Below are positions 1,034-33,783 of a stretch of DNA of 38,146 nt, piece after piece; position 1 is the stretch's first letter; each line of letters begins with the position of its first letter. The position numbers and the translations under genes are program-made. The DNA is from a virus (lineage: Duplodnaviria > Caudoviricetes), in IMG/VR virus record IMGVR_UViG_3300020045_005015, positions 1 to 38,146 of that record. The stretch is one strand, 5' to 3'. The notes beneath the pieces are model-generated. The model saw only the letters and a program-made list of their open reading frames with translations. It had not been told where the DNA came from and ran no database searches.

Positions 1034-1777
1034 ATGGCAAGGCCTGAACGCAATACGGTTGATTATTTTCCCCACATTATAGGTGATGGCAAGAAGATGT
1101 TTTTTATACAGCATAAACATGGAAACGATGGTTACGCAACGTGGTTTAAGATTTTGGAGAAATTGGCATCAACCGAATTTCACTTTTTAAATTTAAATAG
1201 CGAGCAGGAAATTTTGTTTTTGTCTGCTTTTTGCCTGGTTGATGAAAAAAGGCTCTTAGAAATTATTTCGGACCTAGCCAAAATTGGGGCAATAAATCAA
1301 AAATTGTGGGATTTTAAAATAGTTTGGTCTGATGTTTTTATAGAAAGTATACAAGATGCGTATTCACGTAGAAATAATAAATGTATACATTTTGAGGGTT
1401 TATGTATACATTTACTAGGTTTAGGTATTACAATAACCCAACAAAGTGCCGAAAAAGATGACAATAACCCACAAAGTAAAGTAAAGTATAGTAAAGTAAA
1501 GAATAGTAATGAGGAAATTAATTTAATCCTTCCATTTAAATCTGAAATTTTTAAAACCGAATGGGATAAATTGTTAAAAACAAAAAAGTGGCAAAAGAAA
1601 TCGAAAGAGGCGTTGGAGGCCAGCCTAACAAAACTAAGTGAATTTACAGAGGCAGAGGCAATTCAGGCGATTAGGGATGCAATAATTGGCGGATACCAAG
1701 GCATTTTTCCTAAATCTAATAATCAAGTAAATCCAAACCAACATTTAACAGTAGCTAAAGCAAAAAACCAACTTTAA
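1034..1777 (+). CDS. Phage replication initiator (DUF4373/Lin1244-like)
   Basis: MARP...VDYFPH N-terminus, GNDGYATWFKILE, KVKYSKVK linker, directly upstream of dnaB. Confidence 0.8.
   Translation: MARPERNTVDYFPHIIGDGKKMFFIQHKHGNDGYATWFKILEKLASTEFHFLNLNSEQEILFLSAFCLVDEKRLLEIISDLAKIGAINQKLWDFKIVWSDVFIESIQDAYSRRNNKCIHFEGLCIHLLGLGITITQQSAEKDDNNPQSKVKYSKVKNSNEEINLILPFKSEIFKTEWDKLLKTKKWQKKSKEALEASLTKLSEFTEAEAIQAIRDAIIGGYQGIFPKSNNQVNPNQHLTVAKAKNQL
1379..1510. repeat. Iteron-like repeats, putative replication origin inside the initiator gene
   Basis: ATGTATACATTT at 1381 and 1402; ACAATAACCCA at 1430 and 1461; AGTAA-type run at about 1475-1510. Confidence 0.55.
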
Positions 1778-3117
1778 TGGAAAACGGAAAATTACAGCCA
1801 CAGGCGTTAGATTTAGAAGAAGCGGTACTGGGCGCCATTTTAATCGAGAAAGAGGCACTAAGCCGCGTCATAACTATTTTAAAGCACGATTGTTTCTACA
1901 AAGACAGCCACCAAAAAATCTTTAAGGCAATTGAAGAATTAGCCAAAAGAAACGAGCCAGCAGATATTTTAACAGTCACTAACGAATTGTTAAAAAACGG
2001 AGAGCTTGATGTGGTTGGCGGACCATTTGCAATTGTTTCTTTAACAAATAGGGTTGCTAGCAGTGCAAACGTAGAGTTTCACGCGCGGGTGGTTTTGGAA
2101 AAGTTTATGTTGCGGGAATTAATTAGGATTTCAGCCGAAACCATAACCAAGGCCTACGATCCAGAGGTTGATGTGTTTGATATTTTTGGAGAGGTCGAAA
2201 ATAACATCAAAAAAACAATCAATTCAAACACAAGGGGAGGTTTCGAAATGATTGAGGATGCAAAAAATAATTTCCTAAACGAGTGCACCATCGCATTAAA
2301 TTCAAACAAGGCCACCGGAATAGAGTGTTCAATTACCAAACTAAATCAACACACAAACGGGTGGCAAAAAGGGGATTTAATAATTTTAGCGGCCCGCCCA
2401 GGTATGGGTAAAACATCTGCAGCTATGGACTTTGCCTTAAACCCCGCCTTAAATGGAATCCCAGTTGCATTTTTTAGCCTCGAAATGTCGACAGAACAAT
2501 TGGCTGCAAGGGTGCTTTCCTTGATAAGCAGAATAGATGTGCAGGAAATTGTAATGAAAAAATTAAACCACGAAAAATTAAAATACCTAATTAACGAGGG
2601 CAAGGCAATTGATGGCACTAAATTATTCTTGGATAAATCAAAATCACTTTCAATTGTCGAGCTGTCCGGTTTGGCCCGAAGGTATGTCAATGAAAACAAA
2701 GTGGAATTAATTGTTGTTGATTACTTGCAATTAATGAAAGGATCAAGTAAAAAATTCGGGGGAAATAGGGAGAATGAAATCGCGGAAATTAGCCGGGGTC
2801 TTAAGTCTTTAGCGCTCGAATTGGATATACCAATAATTGCACTTTCTCAATTAAGCCGAGAATGTGAAAAGCGACCAGACAAACGCCCCCAGCTTTCAGA
2901 CCTTCGGGAATCGGGCGCAATAGAGCAAGATGCCGACATCGTTGTTTTTATTTACAGGCCAGAATATTATAAAATTGAACAATACGACATCGGAAACGGA
3001 GAACAAATATCAACCAATCAACTATTAATTTTTGATTTTGCAAAGTTTAGAAATGGAAAATTAGGTGAAATTATGGCAAAGTTTATTGGTTCAAATGCAA
3101 TGGTGTGTAATTATTAA
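1777..3117 (+). CDS. dnaB: Replicative DNA helicase
   Basis: AARPGMGKT Walker A, FFSLEMS, IVVDYLQLM, LSQLSR, SDLRESGAIEQDAD. Confidence 0.98.
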   Translation: MENGKLQPQALDLEEAVLGAILIEKEALSRVITILKHDCFYKDSHQKIFKAIEELAKRNEPADILTVTNELLKNGELDVVGGPFAIVSLTNRVASSANVEFHARVVLEKFMLRELIRISAETITKAYDPEVDVFDIFGEVENNIKKTINSNTRGGFEMIEDAKNNFLNECTIALNSNKATGIECSITKLNQHTNGWQKGDLIILAARPGMGKTSAAMDFALNPALNGIPVAFFSLEMSTEQLAARVLSLISRIDVQEIVMKKLNHEKLKYLINEGKAIDGTKLFLDKSKSLSIVELSGLARRYVNENKVELIVVDYLQLMKGSSKKFGGNRENEIAEISRGLKSLALELDIPIIALSQLSRECEKRPDKRPQLSDLRESGAIEQDADIVVFIYRPEYYKIEQYDIGNGEQISTNQLLIFDFAKFRNGKLGEIMAKFIGSNAMVCNY

Positions 3118-3120
3118 AGA

Positions 3121-3360
3121 ATGAAACTAATTAAAATTAAAATACATTTTCGGGCCTTCGGGATGGATAACCAAACGATGGAGATAAATAAACTTAAAGG
3201 TTTCGGATTACCTCATGCAGAAAAATTTATTAAAAGGTACACGAACTGTAAAACATCAATTGTTTATTCAATAGAAATTGATGGAGAAATTATTTACAAC
3301 GAAAAATACGAGCCATTTCAAGTGGTAGGAAAATCACAAAATTTAATTAAAAAAATATGA
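3121..3360 (+). CDS. Hypothetical protein
   Basis: Tightly packed in the operon. Confidence 0.65.
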   Translation: MKLIKIKIHFRAFGMDNQTMEINKLKGFGLPHAEKFIKRYTNCKTSIVYSIEIDGEIIYNEKYEPFQVVGKSQNLIKKI

Positions 3361-3743
3361 ATAATTACGTGAAATATTGCCCAAACGTATGGGTTGCAAA
3401 ATGCACTGAAAAACACGAAAAAGGAGAAATTATCCCGGTGGCCACTAAATACGGAAAAGAAAACGATAGTATCGTGTATAATTTTTTAGGAGAAAAAGAT
3501 GGGTTTTATTTTTACTCAATAGTTAGGGCCGAATACTGGGAGAGAAGAAAATCAATAATTAATCTATCAATGCCAGAAAGTTTAGAGTTTTACGAGTTTG
3601 AACTTGAAAAAGCAAAAGCAAAGCATGAAGGATTGAAAAACGGAACTATTGAGCGCGGACACTCTTTTTCTTTAACCTATGCAAAAAAAGAAGTTAACGA
3701 ACTTGAAATTAAAATAAAAACAGCCAAAAAATTATGGGGCTAA
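3357..3743 (+). CDS. DUF3560-related protein, apparently with an internal deletion
   Basis: N-terminus (PNVWVAKC..TKYGKEN..YSIVRA) and C-terminus (INLSMPES..SLTYAKK..KLWG) resemble the Bacteroidota DUF3560 family as I recall it; the central GHHSE core is absent. Confidence 0.6.
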   Translation: MNNYVKYCPNVWVAKCTEKHEKGEIIPVATKYGKENDSIVYNFLGEKDGFYFYSIVRAEYWERRKSIINLSMPESLEFYEFELEKAKAKHEGLKNGTIERGHSFSLTYAKKEVNELEIKIKTAKKLWG

Positions 3744-3756
3744 AAACAGTTAAAAC

Positions 3757-4659
3757 ATGCCAATAGATTATAAAAAATATCCACCAAACTGGCTGAGTGA
3801 AATAAGGCCAAGAATAATGCAAAGAGCAAATAACACTTGTGAAAACCCAGGTTGCGAATTCAGGCATCTAGAAGAAGTTTGGTCTGTTCGTTTTAAGGGT
3901 AAAACTACCGGGTGGTTTCGCGATTTTGATGAAGCAAATTCATACCCTAAGACAATTGAAGGAAAAAATAAAAAGATTATTCCAAACCCTAAAAAAGTAA
4001 AAGTTGTATTAACAATAGCGCATTTAGATCACGATGAATTAAATCACAATGTTACAGATGAGCGATTAAAAGCATTGTGCCAATTGTGTCATTTACGTTA
4101 TGATTCCAAAGAAAAATATAAAAGGTCCTTAAATAAAAAAACCATGAGTAGAGTAATCACGTTTTCACGAACATTCCCCAAGCACTGCAGCAATGCGGGA
4201 AAGCCAACTTATTTTGTTGAGAAATTTATGAAGTCTAAAAACTCGTATATTTTCAATGATAGTGAGGTGCTGCCAATTATTAATCTAAGTGTATTGTCTG
4301 AGTGCAAACCGAAAAGGCACACAATCAGAGCGGGCAATAGATGGAAGGCATTAGATACATTTTCGCCAAGGGTGTGGTCCGGCAAGCCTTATAATTCTAA
4401 GCAAATAATTATTGGTAAGGACACACTAATTACCTCAGTTAGAAGTGTAGTTATTACCAATGGTGAATGGTTTATTGATGATAAATCTATTGCTAAATTT
4501 GACCTCAGAGGCCGCGAATGGTTTTTAAAAGACTGTACGGTTTTAGAGCAATTGGCAATTAACGATGGCTTAGATGTATTGCAGTTAATCGAGTGGTTTA
4601 AATTTCCTTGTGAGTTTAATGGACAGCTTATCGCATGGAACGAAAATTTTAATTATTAA
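3757..4659 (+). CDS. HNH-like domain in frame with an ASCH/PUA-like domain (possible internal start at 4144)
   Basis: MPIDYKKYPPNW...LTIAHLDHD...LCQLCHLRYD, then MSRVITFS...KRHTIR...WSGKPY...LAINDG. Confidence 0.7.
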   Translation: MPIDYKKYPPNWLSEIRPRIMQRANNTCENPGCEFRHLEEVWSVRFKGKTTGWFRDFDEANSYPKTIEGKNKKIIPNPKKVKVVLTIAHLDHDELNHNVTDERLKALCQLCHLRYDSKEKYKRSLNKKTMSRVITFSRTFPKHCSNAGKPTYFVEKFMKSKNSYIFNDSEVLPIINLSVLSECKPKRHTIRAGNRWKALDTFSPRVWSGKPYNSKQIIIGKDTLITSVRSVVITNGEWFIDDKSIAKFDLRGREWFLKDCTVLEQLAINDGLDVLQLIEWFKFPCEFNGQLIAWNENFNY

Positions 4660-4686
4660 AAACACAAACAAAAAAACAAAACAATT

Positions 4687-5049
4687 ATGAATGTAAAAAA
4701 ATTTATGCTAAAGAAATTTCCAACCAATCAATACATTGATTGTCCAGTGCCACAACATCATTGGGAAACTATCCAGGAGTATGCAGAAAAATATTACCAA
4801 TGGAAAATAAAAACAGAAAAAATAGAAATAGGTGATAATGAAAAATTTGGCAAAATTCAACATTATGAAATTGGCGATGTGGTTGTTTGGAGAGGGCAAG
4901 ACCCATGTATAGGTGTTGTAAAAGGTAGGATTAGGGAAAATCATAAATTATCCAACGATTATAATTCACTTCATTATTCCAATCTTAGATTGGCAACCGT
5001 AAAAGAAAAGATAATTTTAGGAGAAAAAAACATATTATTAATAGATTAA
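4687..5049 (+). CDS. Hypothetical protein
   Basis: ORF with A-rich leader, in operon. Confidence 0.7.
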   Translation: MNVKKFMLKKFPTNQYIDCPVPQHHWETIQEYAEKYYQWKIKTEKIEIGDNEKFGKIQHYEIGDVVVWRGQDPCIGVVKGRIRENHKLSNDYNSLHYSNLRLATVKEKIILGEKNILLID

Positions 5050-5052
5050 CCC

Positions 5053-5286
5053 ATGAAACAAAAACTTATAACAGGAATACTAGCCTTAAGCGTAATTATA
5101 CTTATTTTTGTAAGTGTAATTCAAAGCGCTAAATGTAATTATCTATCTGGTAAAATAACTAGGATGGAAATTTACCAAGAATACACAAACAAGGTAATCG
5201 AGACGCAAAACTATGAATTAGGTTTAAGGCCTGTTTACTGCCCGAATGTTAGGAATTGTAAAACGTGTAAAAATAAAGTGAAATAA
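5053..5286 (+). CDS. Hypothetical membrane-anchored protein
   Basis: Hydrophobic N-terminus; its stop codon lies in the TAAC core of the attC-like site. Confidence 0.65.
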   Translation: MKQKLITGILALSVIILIFVSVIQSAKCNYLSGKITRMEIYQEYTNKVIETQNYELGLRPVYCPNVRNCKTCKNKVK

Positions 5287-5413
5287 CGTTTCCGGGCTTG
5301 CCGTCAGGTGGGGATTGAAAGCACTAAACTTTAAATATAGAACAAATGAAAATAGAAAGCACAAATGTTGATTTAAGCACGGAAGCCCCACTTGTGGCAA
5401 ACCCGTGTTATGT
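5281..5413 (-). other. attC-like recombination hairpin
   Basis: TAAC(5284)-GTTTC-CGGGCTTGCCGTCAGGTGGGGATT pairs imperfectly with AAGCCCCACTTGTGGCAAACCCG-T-GTTA(5410), with an asymmetric spacer, a bulge and an AT-rich variable loop. Confidence 0.7.
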
Positions 5414-5675
5414 GCCGTTAATTTTAGAAGGTACGGCAGCTTGCTCAATGAGAGATGAACTTAAAAAAGCAAGATTTGAAAAGAAAATCACTTTAAAGGA
5501 AATTACAGACAAACTTTCAAATATGGAATTACCTAAATGGTTACAAAGTCAAATCTTGCAAATGTCAAACCATAGAAAATATGATAGAATTACTTGCCCA
5601 ATTGAGCAAGCGATGGAAGCAGCAGTAAACTATCATATTGTAAAAGAATTGATGAACGAAGGTGTGTCGGCTTAA
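5346..5675 (+). CDS. Cassette-encoded hypothetical protein (alternative start 5448)
   Basis: ATG lies inside the hairpin loop; stop lies inside the distal inverted repeat. Confidence 0.65.
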   Translation: MKIESTNVDLSTEAPLVANPCYVPLILEGTAACSMRDELKKARFEKKITLKEITDKLSNMELPKWLQSQILQMSNHRKYDRITCPIEQAMEAAVNYHIVKELMNEGVSA

Positions 5676-5737
5676 TGGCACATAACATAAAATATGTATT
5701 ACATCACATTTAACAATTTGATTTAAAATTATATACA
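5672..5737 (-). other. attI-like site / recombinase upstream region
   Basis: TTAATGGCACATAAC (5672-5686) is a 14/15 inverted repeat of GTTATGTGCCGTTAA (5407-5421); no hairpin follows; 51 bp from the recombinase ATG. Confidence 0.55.
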
Positions 5738-6565
5738 ATGAACATTTCTGAACACGCCACATTCTTTGAACAGGAAATGAAAAGGAGAAATTTTAGTGCT
5801 CAAACTATTAATAACTATTCTAGTTGTATAAAAGTTTTCTTTTCTAAATCTAATAAAGACCACCCTAAAAACATTAATGAAACAGACATTAGGTTGTTTC
5901 TTTCTACTTTTGATGAACCAAACACACAAAGGGCTTACCACTCTGCAATAAAAAAGTTTTATGAAATTTGCTTAAATCAAAAGCAGAAATTCCGCTATAT
6001 ACCTTATGCTAAAAAATCAAATAAACTACCAATAGTTTTATCAGTTGATGAAATACAATCAATGTTTAACGTTTGTGAAAATTTAAAGCATAAAGTAATA
6101 CTTGCCTTATTGTACTCTTGTGGTTTACGAGTAAGTGAATTAATTAATTTGAAGTGGGAACACATTGATAGAAGTAGGAAAATAATTAATATAATTCAAG
6201 CTAAGGGTAAAAAAGATAGGCAGATTGGATTACCTGAAACTATTGTACCATTACTAGAAAAATATTTTATGCAATACAAAAGCAAAGAATATATTTTAAA
6301 CGGTCAATCTAGTTTACAATACACCGACAGAAGTGTTGGCGAAGTGATTAAGCAATTAGCATTTAAAGCTGGTATAAAAAAGAAAGTTTATACACATTTA
6401 ATTAGGCATTGTACATTCACTCATCAGGTGGAAATGGGTATTGACATTAATTTAATTCAGAAAATTGCAGGTCATTCATCAGTAAAAACTACCATGATTT
6501 ATACGCATATTTCAGATAACCTAATCAGTAAAATAAATTCACCACTAAACCAAATTCAACTATGA
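5738..6565 (+). CDS. Tyrosine recombinase, integron-integrase-like
   Basis: SAM-like N-domain, KLPIVLS, GLRVSE, KGKKDR, HLIRH, AGH, TTMIYTH, C-terminal SPL. Confidence 0.95.
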   Translation: MNISEHATFFEQEMKRRNFSAQTINNYSSCIKVFFSKSNKDHPKNINETDIRLFLSTFDEPNTQRAYHSAIKKFYEICLNQKQKFRYIPYAKKSNKLPIVLSVDEIQSMFNVCENLKHKVILALLYSCGLRVSELINLKWEHIDRSRKIINIIQAKGKKDRQIGLPETIVPLLEKYFMQYKSKEYILNGQSSLQYTDRSVGEVIKQLAFKAGIKKKVYTHLIRHCTFTHQVEMGIDINLIQKIAGHSSVKTTMIYTHISDNLISKINSPLNQIQL

Positions 6566-6657
6566 AAAAATACCTTTTACTAATCCTGTTAATCTTTGCC
6601 ATTCCTACCGTATCACACGCAAAGAAACACCGTAGAATGATTAACGCCGATGCATAA
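6562..6657 (+). CDS. 31-aa peptide with a Sec-type signal
   Basis: MKKYLLLILLIFAIPTVSHA|KKHRRMINADA; ATGA overlap with the recombinase stop. Confidence 0.55.
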   Translation: MKKYLLLILLIFAIPTVSHAKKHRRMINADA

Positions 6658-6677
6658 GCCATTTAAAAAATAATTCG

Positions 6678-6685
6678 TAAATTTG
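6678..6685 (+). promoter_or_regulatory. Bacteroidota -7 promoter box
   Basis: TAAATTTG upstream of the packaging genes. Confidence 0.55.
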
Positions 6686-6710
6686 GTACTAAATTAGTAA
6701 CAGATAGTAT

Positions 6711-7004
6711 ATGGCGTTTGAGAAAGGACATAGCAAACTTGGAGGCAAAACAAAGGGGTCAGAAAACAAGGTGTCTAAGGCCGCCCGTGAACTTTTTTTA
6801 ACTACATTAGAGGGAGAGGTAGAACACATTTCAGCTTCATTTGCACAAGTTCGTGAAACCGACCCCGCCAAATATTTAGACTTGTTTGCAAAATATGCCC
6901 AATACTTTATGCCAAAAAAATTAGATATTTCAAACTCTGATAATCAAAAAGGCATACCAATAGCAACTTGGGCCAACAAGAAAAATGATAATGGTAAAAA
7001 ATAA
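6711..7004 (+). CDS. Putative terminase small subunit
   Basis: MAFEKGHSKLGGKTKGSENK N-terminus; position upstream of terL. Confidence 0.65.
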   Translation: MAFEKGHSKLGGKTKGSENKVSKAARELFLTTLEGEVEHISASFAQVRETDPAKYLDLFAKYAQYFMPKKLDISNSDNQKGIPIATWANKKNDNGKK

Positions 7005-7015
7005 GTAGGTAGCCT

Positions 7016-7046
7016 TTTGCCAAATCATTTTTTATATGTAAATTTG
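7016..7046 (+). promoter_or_regulatory. Bacteroidota promoter (-33 TTTG, 19-nt spacer, -7 TAAATTTG)
   Basis: Canonical spacing; ATG 4 nt after the box. Confidence 0.65.
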
Positions 7047-7050
7047 CCAC

Positions 7051-7560
7051 ATGGAAACATGGAAAAAAGTACCTAATTTCAGTAAATATATGGCTGAAAA
7101 AAGCGGGTTAATTAAAACCTTTAACTGGAAAGGTTCAGGCCAAGAAAGAATAATGAAGCCAGCAGTTACTAATGGTTATGCAAAAACAGTAATGATAAAT
7201 GACCAGGGCGAGTATAAGTCAATAAAAGTGCATAGAATAATAGCTTTAACTTTTTGTGAAAACCCATTTAACAAAGATTCTGTTAATCATATTAACGGAA
7301 TAAAAACAGACAACAGGGCAGAAAATTTAGAATGGTGTACACATCAAGAAAACATTAAGCATGCGGTAGATAACAATCTTATGGTTGTAATTAAAGGTGA
7401 ACAAATCGGTAATAGCAAACTAAAAGAACATCAGGTTTTAGAAATTAGAGCAAAGTTTATACCAAGGAAATATACAAGGGTAAAATTAGCAAAAGAGTAC
7501 AATGTTACTGAGGGAACAATAAAGGATATTTTGTATAAAAGAACGTGGAATCATATATAA
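7051..7560 (+). CDS. NUMOD4-HNH homing endonuclease
   Basis: ETWKKVPNFSKY, VHRIIALTF, VNHINGIKTDNRAENLEW, C-terminal HTH-like region. Confidence 0.92.
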   Translation: METWKKVPNFSKYMAEKSGLIKTFNWKGSGQERIMKPAVTNGYAKTVMINDQGEYKSIKVHRIIALTFCENPFNKDSVNHINGIKTDNRAENLEWCTHQENIKHAVDNNLMVVIKGEQIGNSKLKEHQVLEIRAKFIPRKYTRVKLAKEYNVTEGTIKDILYKRTWNHI

Positions 7561-27618: not shown

Positions 27619-27873
27619 ATGGCAAAGAAACCATCAACAGAAAAACCCTCTAAAGCTGGTAAAATAATCCAGTTAGAAGAGACACGTCAAAAGAAATTGG
27701 CAGAAGCGCAAAAACTTTTAGAAGATGCAAAGAAAGAGAACTCAATTAAGGCTCAGGCGCTCTTCGCGCAATTCCAAAAAGACACTGCATCTTTAGGTTA
27801 TGCGCTTAAGGTGAGAAACATCCTAGATGGAAACAAAATTGTTTCTCAATTTGTTCTAAGCCCTATCAATTAA
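27619..27873 (+). CDS. Hypothetical protein
   Basis: ORF after the fibre gene. Confidence 0.65.
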   Translation: MAKKPSTEKPSKAGKIIQLEETRQKKLAEAQKLLEDAKKENSIKAQALFAQFQKDTASLGYALKVRNILDGNKIVSQFVLSPIN

Positions 27874-33567: not shown

Positions 33568-33688
33568 AAAAAGCTTTTTAGCCTCTAAAATTGGGCTTTC
33601 TAATACTGAATTTTCGTTTTTTCTGAATAAAAAAAGGCATTACGAAGGCAAAGAAGAAGAGCTTTTGGAGTTTTTAGATAGTTTGTAA
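33491..33688 (+). CDS. Cro-like HTH regulator (start uncertain)
   Basis: IKKTGLKKSFLASKIGLSNTEFSFFLN. Confidence 0.7.
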   Translation: MQKKKKKDGNCKKNTLQEKIKKTGLKKSFLASKIGLSNTEFSFFLNKKRHYEGKEEELLEFLDSL

Positions 33689-33783
33689 AAATAATTTTAC
33701 GCCTAATTATCAAACAGTTATGAAAAAACACAAAAATAAGTGTAAATTTATTTTTACAAATCAAAATAAATGCTTTATCTTTA
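33685..33783 (+). promoter_or_regulatory. Two more operator-like palindromes and a rightward promoter
   Basis: GTAAAAATAATTTTAC (33685), GTAAATTTATTTTTAC (33742), variant -7 box TATCTTTA (33776-33783). Confidence 0.55.

Follow-up and report, generated by a model that had tools for sequence, protein, structure and literature searches.

We propose that positions 5287-5685 of IMG/VR record IMGVR_UViG_3300020045_005015 are very likely a mobile one-gene cassette that sits at a docking site 51 nt before the gene of a Xer-like tyrosine recombinase; this recombinase is predicted to insert and excise such cassettes at TAA|C, probably on a folded single strand. The stretch analysed, called the window below, is the whole virus record, 38,146 bases long, linear and rated 100% complete. 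The proposal is carried by the build of the unit, by its return in related loci with arms that covary and in tandem arrays, by breakpoints between near-identical contigs that fall exactly at AA|C, and by the presence of the same cassette in other contexts. An initial annotation, made from the letters of the window, had suggested a phage-borne, integron-like gene-capture system at this place, and its interpretation is supported overall. The features of the locus are the following:

5281..5287, + strand: in-situ left box AAATAAC; its last C (5287) is the first cassette base and its earlier letters are phage backbone
5287..5685, + strand: cassette, 399 bp, from the C after the upstream AA through the AA of the TAAC box adjoining the docking site; borders placed by likeness between contigs
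5287..5421, + strand: attC-like hairpin site, made of C, spacer GTTTC (5288-5292), stem arms 5293-5313 and 5386-5405, T 5406 and the far arm
5448..5675, + strand: cassette gene, 75 amino acids (aa), in the same direction as the recombinase gene; the open frame reaches an ATG at 5346 (109 aa)
5672..5686, + strand: cassette right end TTAATGGCACATAAC, which pairs with 5407-5421
5685..5686, no strand assigned: crossover point AA|C (+) = G|TT (-), where likeness between contigs begins or ends
5687..5702, + strand: attI-like docking half-site, ATAAA followed by ATATGTATTAC, a motif conserved among relatives
5738..6565, + strand: gene of a Xer-like tyrosine recombinase, 275 aa, with six catalytic residues kept and no IntI insertion

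At its left border, the in-situ box includes the stop codon of the open reading frame (ORF) 5053-5286; it lacks the ATTGC cassette-end consensus and pairs with the far arm only as ATAAC/GTTAT (5407-5411). The hairpin stem is rich in guanine and cytosine (GC), its loop measures about 70 nt, and the far arm, GTTATGTGCCGTTAA at 5407-5421, begins GTTATGT (5407-5413). The 14/15 inverted repeat between 5407-5421 and 5672-5686, which the initial annotation had taken as the bounds of the cassette body, was found again and extends to 15/16 as 5406-5421 and 5672-5687, 250 nt separating the arms. As had been noted, a distance of 51 nt lies between the end of the TAAC box, at 5686, and the recombinase ATG, and the cassette, announced at about 400 bp, measures 399 bp. 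The docking site next to it reads AAC, 5 nt, ATATGTATTAC. The locus had been read on the minus strand; the cassette gene lies on the + strand, like the recombinase gene. The hairpin is 72% alike over 133 nt to that of the first unit of locus L068, and 5288-5410 is matched by many short contigs from other metagenomes. Because variants concentrate on third codon positions inside 5448-5675 (20 of the 25 variant places listed there, against one of four upstream, by hand count), the 75-aa gene is taken as real and its start is most likely at 5448, not at 5346. Its product has no Pfam or PHROG family; the top match in a protein atlas, an 'XRE family transcriptional regulator' at 0.90, is a weak lead only, and the protein is possibly a small helix-turn-helix protein of the XRE type.

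Related loci were taken from viral contigs (7), from genome bins (3 true orthologues, three longer and different recombinases having been dropped from the sample) and from metagenomes (80 of 190 relatives). The orthologues come from genome bins assigned to Bacteroidota and Ignavibacteriota. Of the 91 loci, 86 carry the motif AAC-(3-6 nt)-ATATGT at 50-54 nt upstream of the ATG, and the other 5 are without upstream DNA; in the window this motif has a single occurrence. The docking consensus among 68 distinct segments is aATtgC...TAAC|Ata.Aatatgtat, in which the T eleven bases from the cut never varies. To the left of the docking AAC, the DNA differs from locus to locus; an invariant upstream gene, which the initial annotation had named as a finding that would speak against it, is thus absent. 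Among the 80 metagenome contigs, 19 break off 54-131 nt ahead of the ATG, and four contigs start at (T)AAC. Assemblers break contigs in this way where a population is heterogeneous.

Comparison of these loci reveals a common grammar, found in 49 units of 32 loci. On the + strand a unit runs from ...AA|C through a spacer of mostly 5 nt, usually G-first, an inner arm, a loop, the second inner arm and 1-2 nt (usually T) into GTTA-NNN-GCAGT, a one-gene body and ATTGC-NNN-TAA|C, after which comes the next spacer or the docking half-site. The right end of a unit pairs with its own GTTA arm, and the in-situ left box pairs with that arm only at AAC/GTT. A closing repeat of at least 13/16 starting with GTTA was found in 31 of the 44 non-redundant loci with at least 600 nt upstream, against 0 with the reversed query and 2 with a complement-only query. 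Walking the chain of units gave at least one unit in 32/77 non-redundant loci, at least two in tandem in 12/77, and five in L076. The term 'minimal' used by the initial annotation therefore suits the window, which holds one cassette, but not the relatives, which hold up to 5. We also note three AAC...GTTA stretches with paired inner arms within about 4 kb (1606-5786) on contig C92 of G001, another contig of the same Saprospiraceae genome bin as locus L009; they may form an array away from a recombinase gene. A loose AAC...GTTA pattern run over three genome bins gave fewer matches than its control and was uninformative.

The hairpins expected in homologues of the recombinase locus are indeed there, in other sequences and with the pairing kept. 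Among 48 distinct pairs of outer arms, positions 1-3 do not vary, 3-4 Watson-Crick pair types are seen at each of positions 5-7, 9 and 12-15, and position 11 is a T.G pair in 46. The inner arms (38 pairs) are paired in 30-38 cases per position, with many pair types and little sequence conservation, and the second half-site has 1-2 nt between its arms in 33/38. When the two ends of a unit are rejoined as they would be in a circle, the hairpin becomes stabler than in situ in 39/39 units (median z -5.6 vs -2.2); for the window, the circle form reaches -29.1 kcal/mol (z -5.15) and the in-situ form -18.0 kcal/mol (z -1.75). The units entering the covariation and folding counts had been preselected at 13/16 pairing or better, which inflates both measures; preselection raises the pairing rate, not the variety of pair types nor the T.G pair. 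The inverted repeat had been interpreted initially as the scar left when a circular cassette is opened at G|TT; in keeping with this, the right end pairs with its own far arm and the rejoined form folds more strongly than the in-situ form.

A second sample was drawn with a site pattern that makes no reference to the recombinase, and 120 viral loci were fetched. A full hairpin was present at 55 of the 120 pattern matches, against 3 of 600 random control positions; the far arms carry G at position 11 in 38/47, and closure on the unit's own ...TAAC end was observed in 28 of the 39 loci with at least 600 nt downstream, both nulls giving 0. The hairpin sites (L097-L216 together with the units) fall into length classes of about 60, 100 and 140 nt, with no continuum between them. 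In five site-anchored loci (L139, L146, L152, L174 and L176) the closing AAC is followed by TACTGG, TACCAG, TACCTA or TACCGA and not by a G-spacer or the ATATGT box; these continuations may represent a second kind of docking or end sequence.

Movement of the units is apparent from contigs that agree on one side of the junction and differ on the other. Loci L020 and L038 are 100% identical over 784 nt from ATAAC, their left sides being unrelated, and L020 is 99.8% identical to L019 over 1276 nt from the same ATAAC point. Likewise, L006 and L033 share their right 400 nt at 100%, with an ungapped identity of 0.28 on the left, and L009 and L026 agree at 90.5% on the right and 0.31 on the left; nine other such pairs each proved to be one contig present in two collections. 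Unit 1 of L050 corresponds to unit 2 of L077 (74% over 594 nt), the docking site and recombinase gene of the two loci are 70% alike, and nothing else is common to them; L077 has an extra 303-nt unit adjoining the docking site. The window cassette itself, about 96% identical, occurs in contigs of three other metagenome runs from three studies, where it is covered over 5283-5692 (X2, 16 differences), 5294-5686 (X3, 17) and 5405-5686 (X4, 20), with unlike DNA beyond. In three X3 records and in X4 record 23 the likeness stops at 5686, and in X3 another spacer and stem follow. Three joints from the same comparison that skip about 236 letters have sides of just 21-23 letters and are left out of the evidence. 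Cassette edges in independent contigs thus fall exactly at the G|TT (= AA|C) borders that the initial annotation had proposed. An ORF-less, GC-rich unit ending GGGGAAC is also present in L004 as a direct repeat 1.7 kb apart (40-121 and 1750-1831); this contig has 32% GC, and the likeness of the repeated unit stops exactly at AAC.

The longest ORF lies on the + strand, toward the recombinase, in 43 of 45 units with an ORF, 4 units being ORF-less; the two exceptions have + strand frames as well, 122 and 80 aa long, and no flipped unit was seen. At E <= 0.001, 9 of 44 cassette proteins match Pfam and 35 do not; the matches are MT-A70 twice, Mom, a D12 (Dam-type) methyltransferase, a C5 methyltransferase, an RNA ligase, a NUMOD endonuclease domain and two weak ones. 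In 10 of the 45 ORF units (L002, L059, L061, L065, L068, L074, L076, L077, L080 and L090), the TAA of the terminal box is the stop codon of the gene, so that the cut would come directly after the stop.

A related situation is seen in cultured phages. Among isolates of one species of Polaribacter phage (Freya_1 and Freya_10 records, L223-L226), Freya_10 corresponds to Freya_1 with 4,942 bp added, in which about 13 small genes lie on the + strand; this block sits exactly between the ...ATTGTTTACAAC box and the sequence ahead of the integrase gene, about 50 nt before that gene. The Freya integrase is 29% identical to the window recombinase, and Freya_5 to Freya_9 hold 14-93% of the first 4.2 kb. 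In a quick check, the best self-closing repeat of the block was 10/14, which falls short of the rule for the units. In the part available, the paper that describes the Freya phages gives a genome size range, 44.0-48.9 kb, only. Since they differ by a 4.9-kb block at a homologous AAC, these cultured isolates are a potential bench system.

The recombinase consists of a SAM-like N-terminal domain (PF13495) and a phage-integrase catalytic domain (PF00589), with no arm-binding domain, and its catalytic residues R131, K156, H220, R223, H246 and Y255 are kept in 11/11 family sequences. It stays below the cut-offs of all NCBIfam models concerned, both those of Xer proteins (XerA, the best, 197.2 bits vs 220; XerD 158.5 vs 329.6; XerC 150 vs 335.15) and those of IntI (TIGR02249 176.2 vs 265; NF011946 92.3 vs 435). 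TIGR02249 is matched in two stretches (model 5-179 and 242-314) that leave 180-241 unmatched, and in the alignment with VchIntIA (2a3v) residues 178-200 of the query (23 aa) stand opposite 182-247 of the chain (66 aa), so the missing IntI insertion and the non-canonical character noticed in the initial annotation are both borne out. Among solved structures, archaeal XerA (1.2e-30) and VchIntIA (1.6e-28) are similarly close. The predicted model (mean predicted local distance difference test score, pLDDT, 82.4) has no extra helix between residues 165 and 196, and its best fold matches are XerA 5hxy (E 4.6e-14) and IntI4 (3.9e-13). In a small tree of 25 rows, with 4 outside references and long branches, the family groups with three flavobacterial-phage integrases and is separated by a split of 93/95 from IntI1, a Shewanella-phage IntI and E. 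coli XerC and XerD. On account of these domains, sub-cut-off scores, absent insertion and model, we classify the enzyme as a simple Xer-like two-domain tyrosine recombinase and not as an IntI.

In classical integrons, the order on the recombinase-sense strand is cassettes, AA|C, attI, intI. Because cassettes, AA|C, docking site and recombinase gene follow one another in the same order here, and each cassette opens with most of its hairpin and finishes with the remaining half of the outer stem, an integron-like working can be proposed. The cassette would leave as a circle, in which its two ends rebuild an outer stem of 12-16 bp. The + strand hairpin, with its outer stem, 5-nt versus 1-2-nt spacer, inner stem and loop, would be the substrate; it would exchange one strand with the duplex docking site, replication then resolving the product, and insertion there would proceed via a cut after AA, as in integrons. 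A folded + strand is favoured because the inner arms covary without conserved sequence, because the centre of the second half-site is too short for a duplex site, and because the T.G pair is an A.C mismatch on the other strand and could thereby mark the strand. The likely benefit of such a system is a fast exchange of accessory and counter-defence genes among phages, given that DNA methyltransferases, a Mom-like protein and an RNA ligase are found among the genes carried in the relatives.

Several points weigh against this scheme. The window hairpin and repeat, taken alone, are at chance level: the in-situ fold of 5275-5420 is not significant (z of -1.36 and -1.40 for the minus and plus strands), and shuffled windows are expected to have 0.78 repeats of 15/16 within 400 nt, where the window has 2. 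A loose hairpin grammar over the window gave 9 matches vs 8.55 +/- 3.6 in shuffles and no further credible site. The hairpin that the initial annotation had placed at 5281-5413 exists, with the asymmetric spacers described (5 nt vs one T), but in situ it is no stabler than shuffled sequence; the window features owe their significance to the relatives and to the fold of the rejoined circle form. Other reservations concern the sample. Besides the preselection mentioned above, 13 of the 44 loci fall below a closing repeat of 13/16, several of them showing by eye shorter repeats or an indel; and a relative of the recombinase lies within 1.5 kb in only 2 of the 120 site-anchored loci, so that most sites are away from, or without, an enzyme gene. 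None of the metagenome runs searched holds the window phage itself, the highest share being 0.09 and consisting of contigs only. The spacer asymmetry of 5 nt vs 1-2 nt departs from the known attC geometry and makes the seating of two monomers hard to picture. It is from constant adjacency alone that we infer the neighbouring enzyme to be the catalyst. Published work has tied the I2-helix insertion, absent here, to recombination of single-stranded attC sites (PMC7790495). Finally, the RecT and exonuclease encoded by the phage itself could shuffle DNA at short repeats.

Among other explanations, an exchange of modules between double-stranded Xer-type sites, similar to that proposed for pdif modules, is unlikely. 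Under this explanation the TAAC arm, a 6-bp centre and the next arm would form a duplex site, genes between sites of opposite orientation would move by duplex recombination, and no hairpin would be involved. It would suit a simple two-domain Xer-like enzyme for which XerA is both the best NCBIfam model and the best fold match, a docking site that reads arm, about 6 nt, arm, and units flanked by inverted arms as in pdif modules (PMC7399989). However, the inner arms are nearly unconserved and yet complementary in 30-38 of 38 pairs per position, which fits a structure and not a duplex half-site read by protein; the 1-2 nt found between the arms of the second half in 33/38 are too short for a duplex centre; the docking and hairpin centres differ, so that a two-strand exchange would leave mismatches; and the unit-specific letters of the outer arms covary out to 15-16 nt. 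Less probable still is an ordinary integration module, in which the conserved site would be an attP for lysogeny, possibly into host hairpins, and the repeats would be accessory binding sites. Simple Xer-like phage integrases such as that of Brujita are known (PMC8138268), the 24 window ORFs scanned include no second integrase, and the orthologues on Bacteroidota and Ignavibacteriota bin contigs would also agree with integration; but tandem self-closing one-gene units, cassette swaps inside phage contigs and the position of the gene between the replication and packaging modules would all be left unexplained, and an attP role could coexist with cassette capture instead of replacing it.

An inversion switch is highly improbable. 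The recombinase would here flip the 250-bp segment and toggle the small gene or its own promoter, and inverted 16-nt arms do surround a short segment beside a tyrosine recombinase gene whose product weakly matches tyrosine-type invertase models (E 7e-10 and 1e-9). Yet the left arm is without a docking half-site and likeness stops exactly at TAACA, the relatives hold unrelated genes between the arms as well as tandem and ORF-less units, and the longest ORFs are almost all on the + strand, with no unit found flipped. As for chance repeats in an AT-rich genome beside an unrelated recombinase gene, the window statistics given above (repeat, fold and loose grammar) would be in keeping with them, but the covarying recurrence in relatives, the exact breakpoints and the near-zero nulls have already refuted this idea, to which we give next to no credence. 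An insertion sequence or a miniature inverted-repeat transposable element (MITE) with terminal repeats was considered too, and rejected: the arms differ from unit to unit, and tandem units stand beside one recombinase gene. A cassette captured at the docking site by the Xer-like recombinase, probably via a folded strand, remains the explanation that we favour.

The window phage is tailed and encodes, besides RecT and the exonuclease, a RusA-like resolvase, a replication initiator and DnaB. Its genes are arranged from the replication genes through the cassette and recombinase region to the large terminase, portal, major head protein and tape measure. As the closest cultured relative of the recombinase is the integrase of Polaribacter phage Leef_1 (35% identity), the phage is assigned by this sequence relationship to the Bacteroidota (flavobacterial) type, in accordance with the Bacteroidota origin that had been suggested at first. 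A scan of the window gave zero tRNAs and therefore no tRNA-type attP, and an Rfam scan at E <= 1 of L001, the window locus, and of L002-L008 gave 0 matches. A search of cultured-phage DNA with 4500-7500 returned matches to HNH endonucleases only, and neither the backbone gene 4687-5049 nor the cassette gene had relatives in the viral contigs searched. The ORF at 3757-4659 is headed by an HNH endonuclease, and its C-terminal half (residues 133-282) has a homologue in L002, where a cassette protein of 148 aa stands by itself (L002 2503-2949; 33% identity, E 8e-12); thus, what is a cassette gene elsewhere is a fused domain in the window. A frame of 31 codons at 6562-6657, read from the sequence alone, seems to have a signal-peptide-like start and overlaps the recombinase stop by ATGA. 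The sole other window repeat of at least 15/16 within 400 nt is an AT-rich 19-nt inverted repeat (33682-33700 and 33742-33760) in the gap where gene direction flips from - to +, which may be an operator or an origin. An intergenic hairpin at 27713-27799 has self-paired AAC...GTT ends (AAGCGCAAAAAC and GTTATGCGCTTA) and a 5-nt vs 2-nt spacer; its fold z is only -1.1 and it is without the ATTGC/GCAGT consensus, so it could be a solitary site, a decayed one or a product of chance.

Beyond this single phage, one can advance, with somewhat less confidence than an even chance would warrant, that phages of the Bacteroidota type run an integron of their own, in which a Xer-like recombinase devoid of I2 captures and shuffles hairpin-bounded cassettes on folded single-stranded DNA. 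If true, integron-style chemistry either had two origins or is older than the IntI insertion that is held to have enabled it, and phages trade methyltransferases and other counter-defence genes through a dedicated site-specific market invisible to integron-finding tools. Integrons are the textbook bacterial device for gene capture, and a platform run by a plain Xer-like phage enzyme would test the need for the insertion. It would also give phage mosaicism a concrete site-specific mechanism, explain the spread of small accessory and anti-restriction genes among phages, and reveal arrays overlooked by IntI-based tools. In the literature searched, no paper describing a phage cassette system of this kind was found. 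Smyshlyaev et al. (2021) describe simple recombinases on phages and, in the part of their article available, no such platform. A census of MITEs (PMC11602168), whose text as available contains neither 'attC' nor 'tyrosine recombinase', may include these hairpins, unrecognised, among the elements shared by Bacteroidota and viruses.

The system resembles classical integrons, above all the sedentary chromosomal ones, in that a recombinase gene is flanked at its 5' end by a docking site and goes with an array whose units mostly contain one gene. The sites are alike too: in each imperfect palindrome, the outer boxes AAC...GTT enclose a spacer, inner boxes and a loop that varies. On the recombinase-sense strand the crossover falls at AA|C (G|TT), and the far end of a unit completes its own outer stem. 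Further parallels are the extra unit that adjoins the docking site in L077 compared with L050, the ORF-less units and the families of sites. In contrast to integrons, the phage enzyme lacks the IntI insertion, scores below the IntI cut-offs and stands apart from IntI1 and phage IntI in the small tree. The phage sites differ by a spacer of 5 nt vs 1-2 nt, an outer stem of 12-16 bp, and a T.G at position 11 in place of the known extrahelical bases. Moreover, phage cargo reads toward the recombinase, along phage transcription, whereas integron cargo reads away from attI, from a promoter in or near intI. The hosts differ as well, being phages of the Bacteroidota type. Among Bacteroidetes, one named genome with a complete integron appears in the available part of the IntegronFinder 2.0 paper (PMC9024848). 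Integron integrases, attC and attI sites and cassettes have been reported in phages by Qi et al. (2023), with sites recombined by IntI1 (PMC9892861). Their clusters of attC sites lacking integron-integrases (CALINs) are comparable to the present loci in that phage genomes carry cassette sites, often with no integrase nearby; unlike ours, however, that work is IntI-based, and the terms Bacteroid-, Flavobacter-, Cellulophaga and Xer are absent from its text (PMC9892861).

A precedent for Xer recombination of folded strands is provided by the CTX phage, where XerCD perform a single strand exchange between the folded phage strand and a duplex site and replication completes the process (PMC3442271). 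With this case, and with the one-recombinase systems XerA, XerH and XerS, the phage system shares a simple Xer-type enzyme and a docking site of arm-centre-arm appearance. It departs from the Xer systems in that the phage encodes the enzyme, folded sites bound gene cassettes, arrays form, and the Xer cut-offs are missed. The TAA-ending arm presumably resembles a dif arm. As to pdif sites, they are conserved 28-bp duplex sites read by the host XerC/D. The pdif modules of Acinetobacter plasmids are similar in holding genes between inverted Xer-type sites and in being thought to move as modules (PMC7399989). Here, unlike in pdif modules, the inner arms change freely without losing their pairing, and a gene for a dedicated enzyme stands at the head of the array. 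Finally, the promoter-early stem-loop (PeSL) cassettes in the hyperplastic regions of T4-type phages are likewise small accessory genes between stem-loops that are shuffled among phages. To our knowledge, neither a dedicated recombinase nor a fixed cut point is associated with them, whereas the system described here combines an enzyme gene with a docking site and a junction placed exactly at AA|C.

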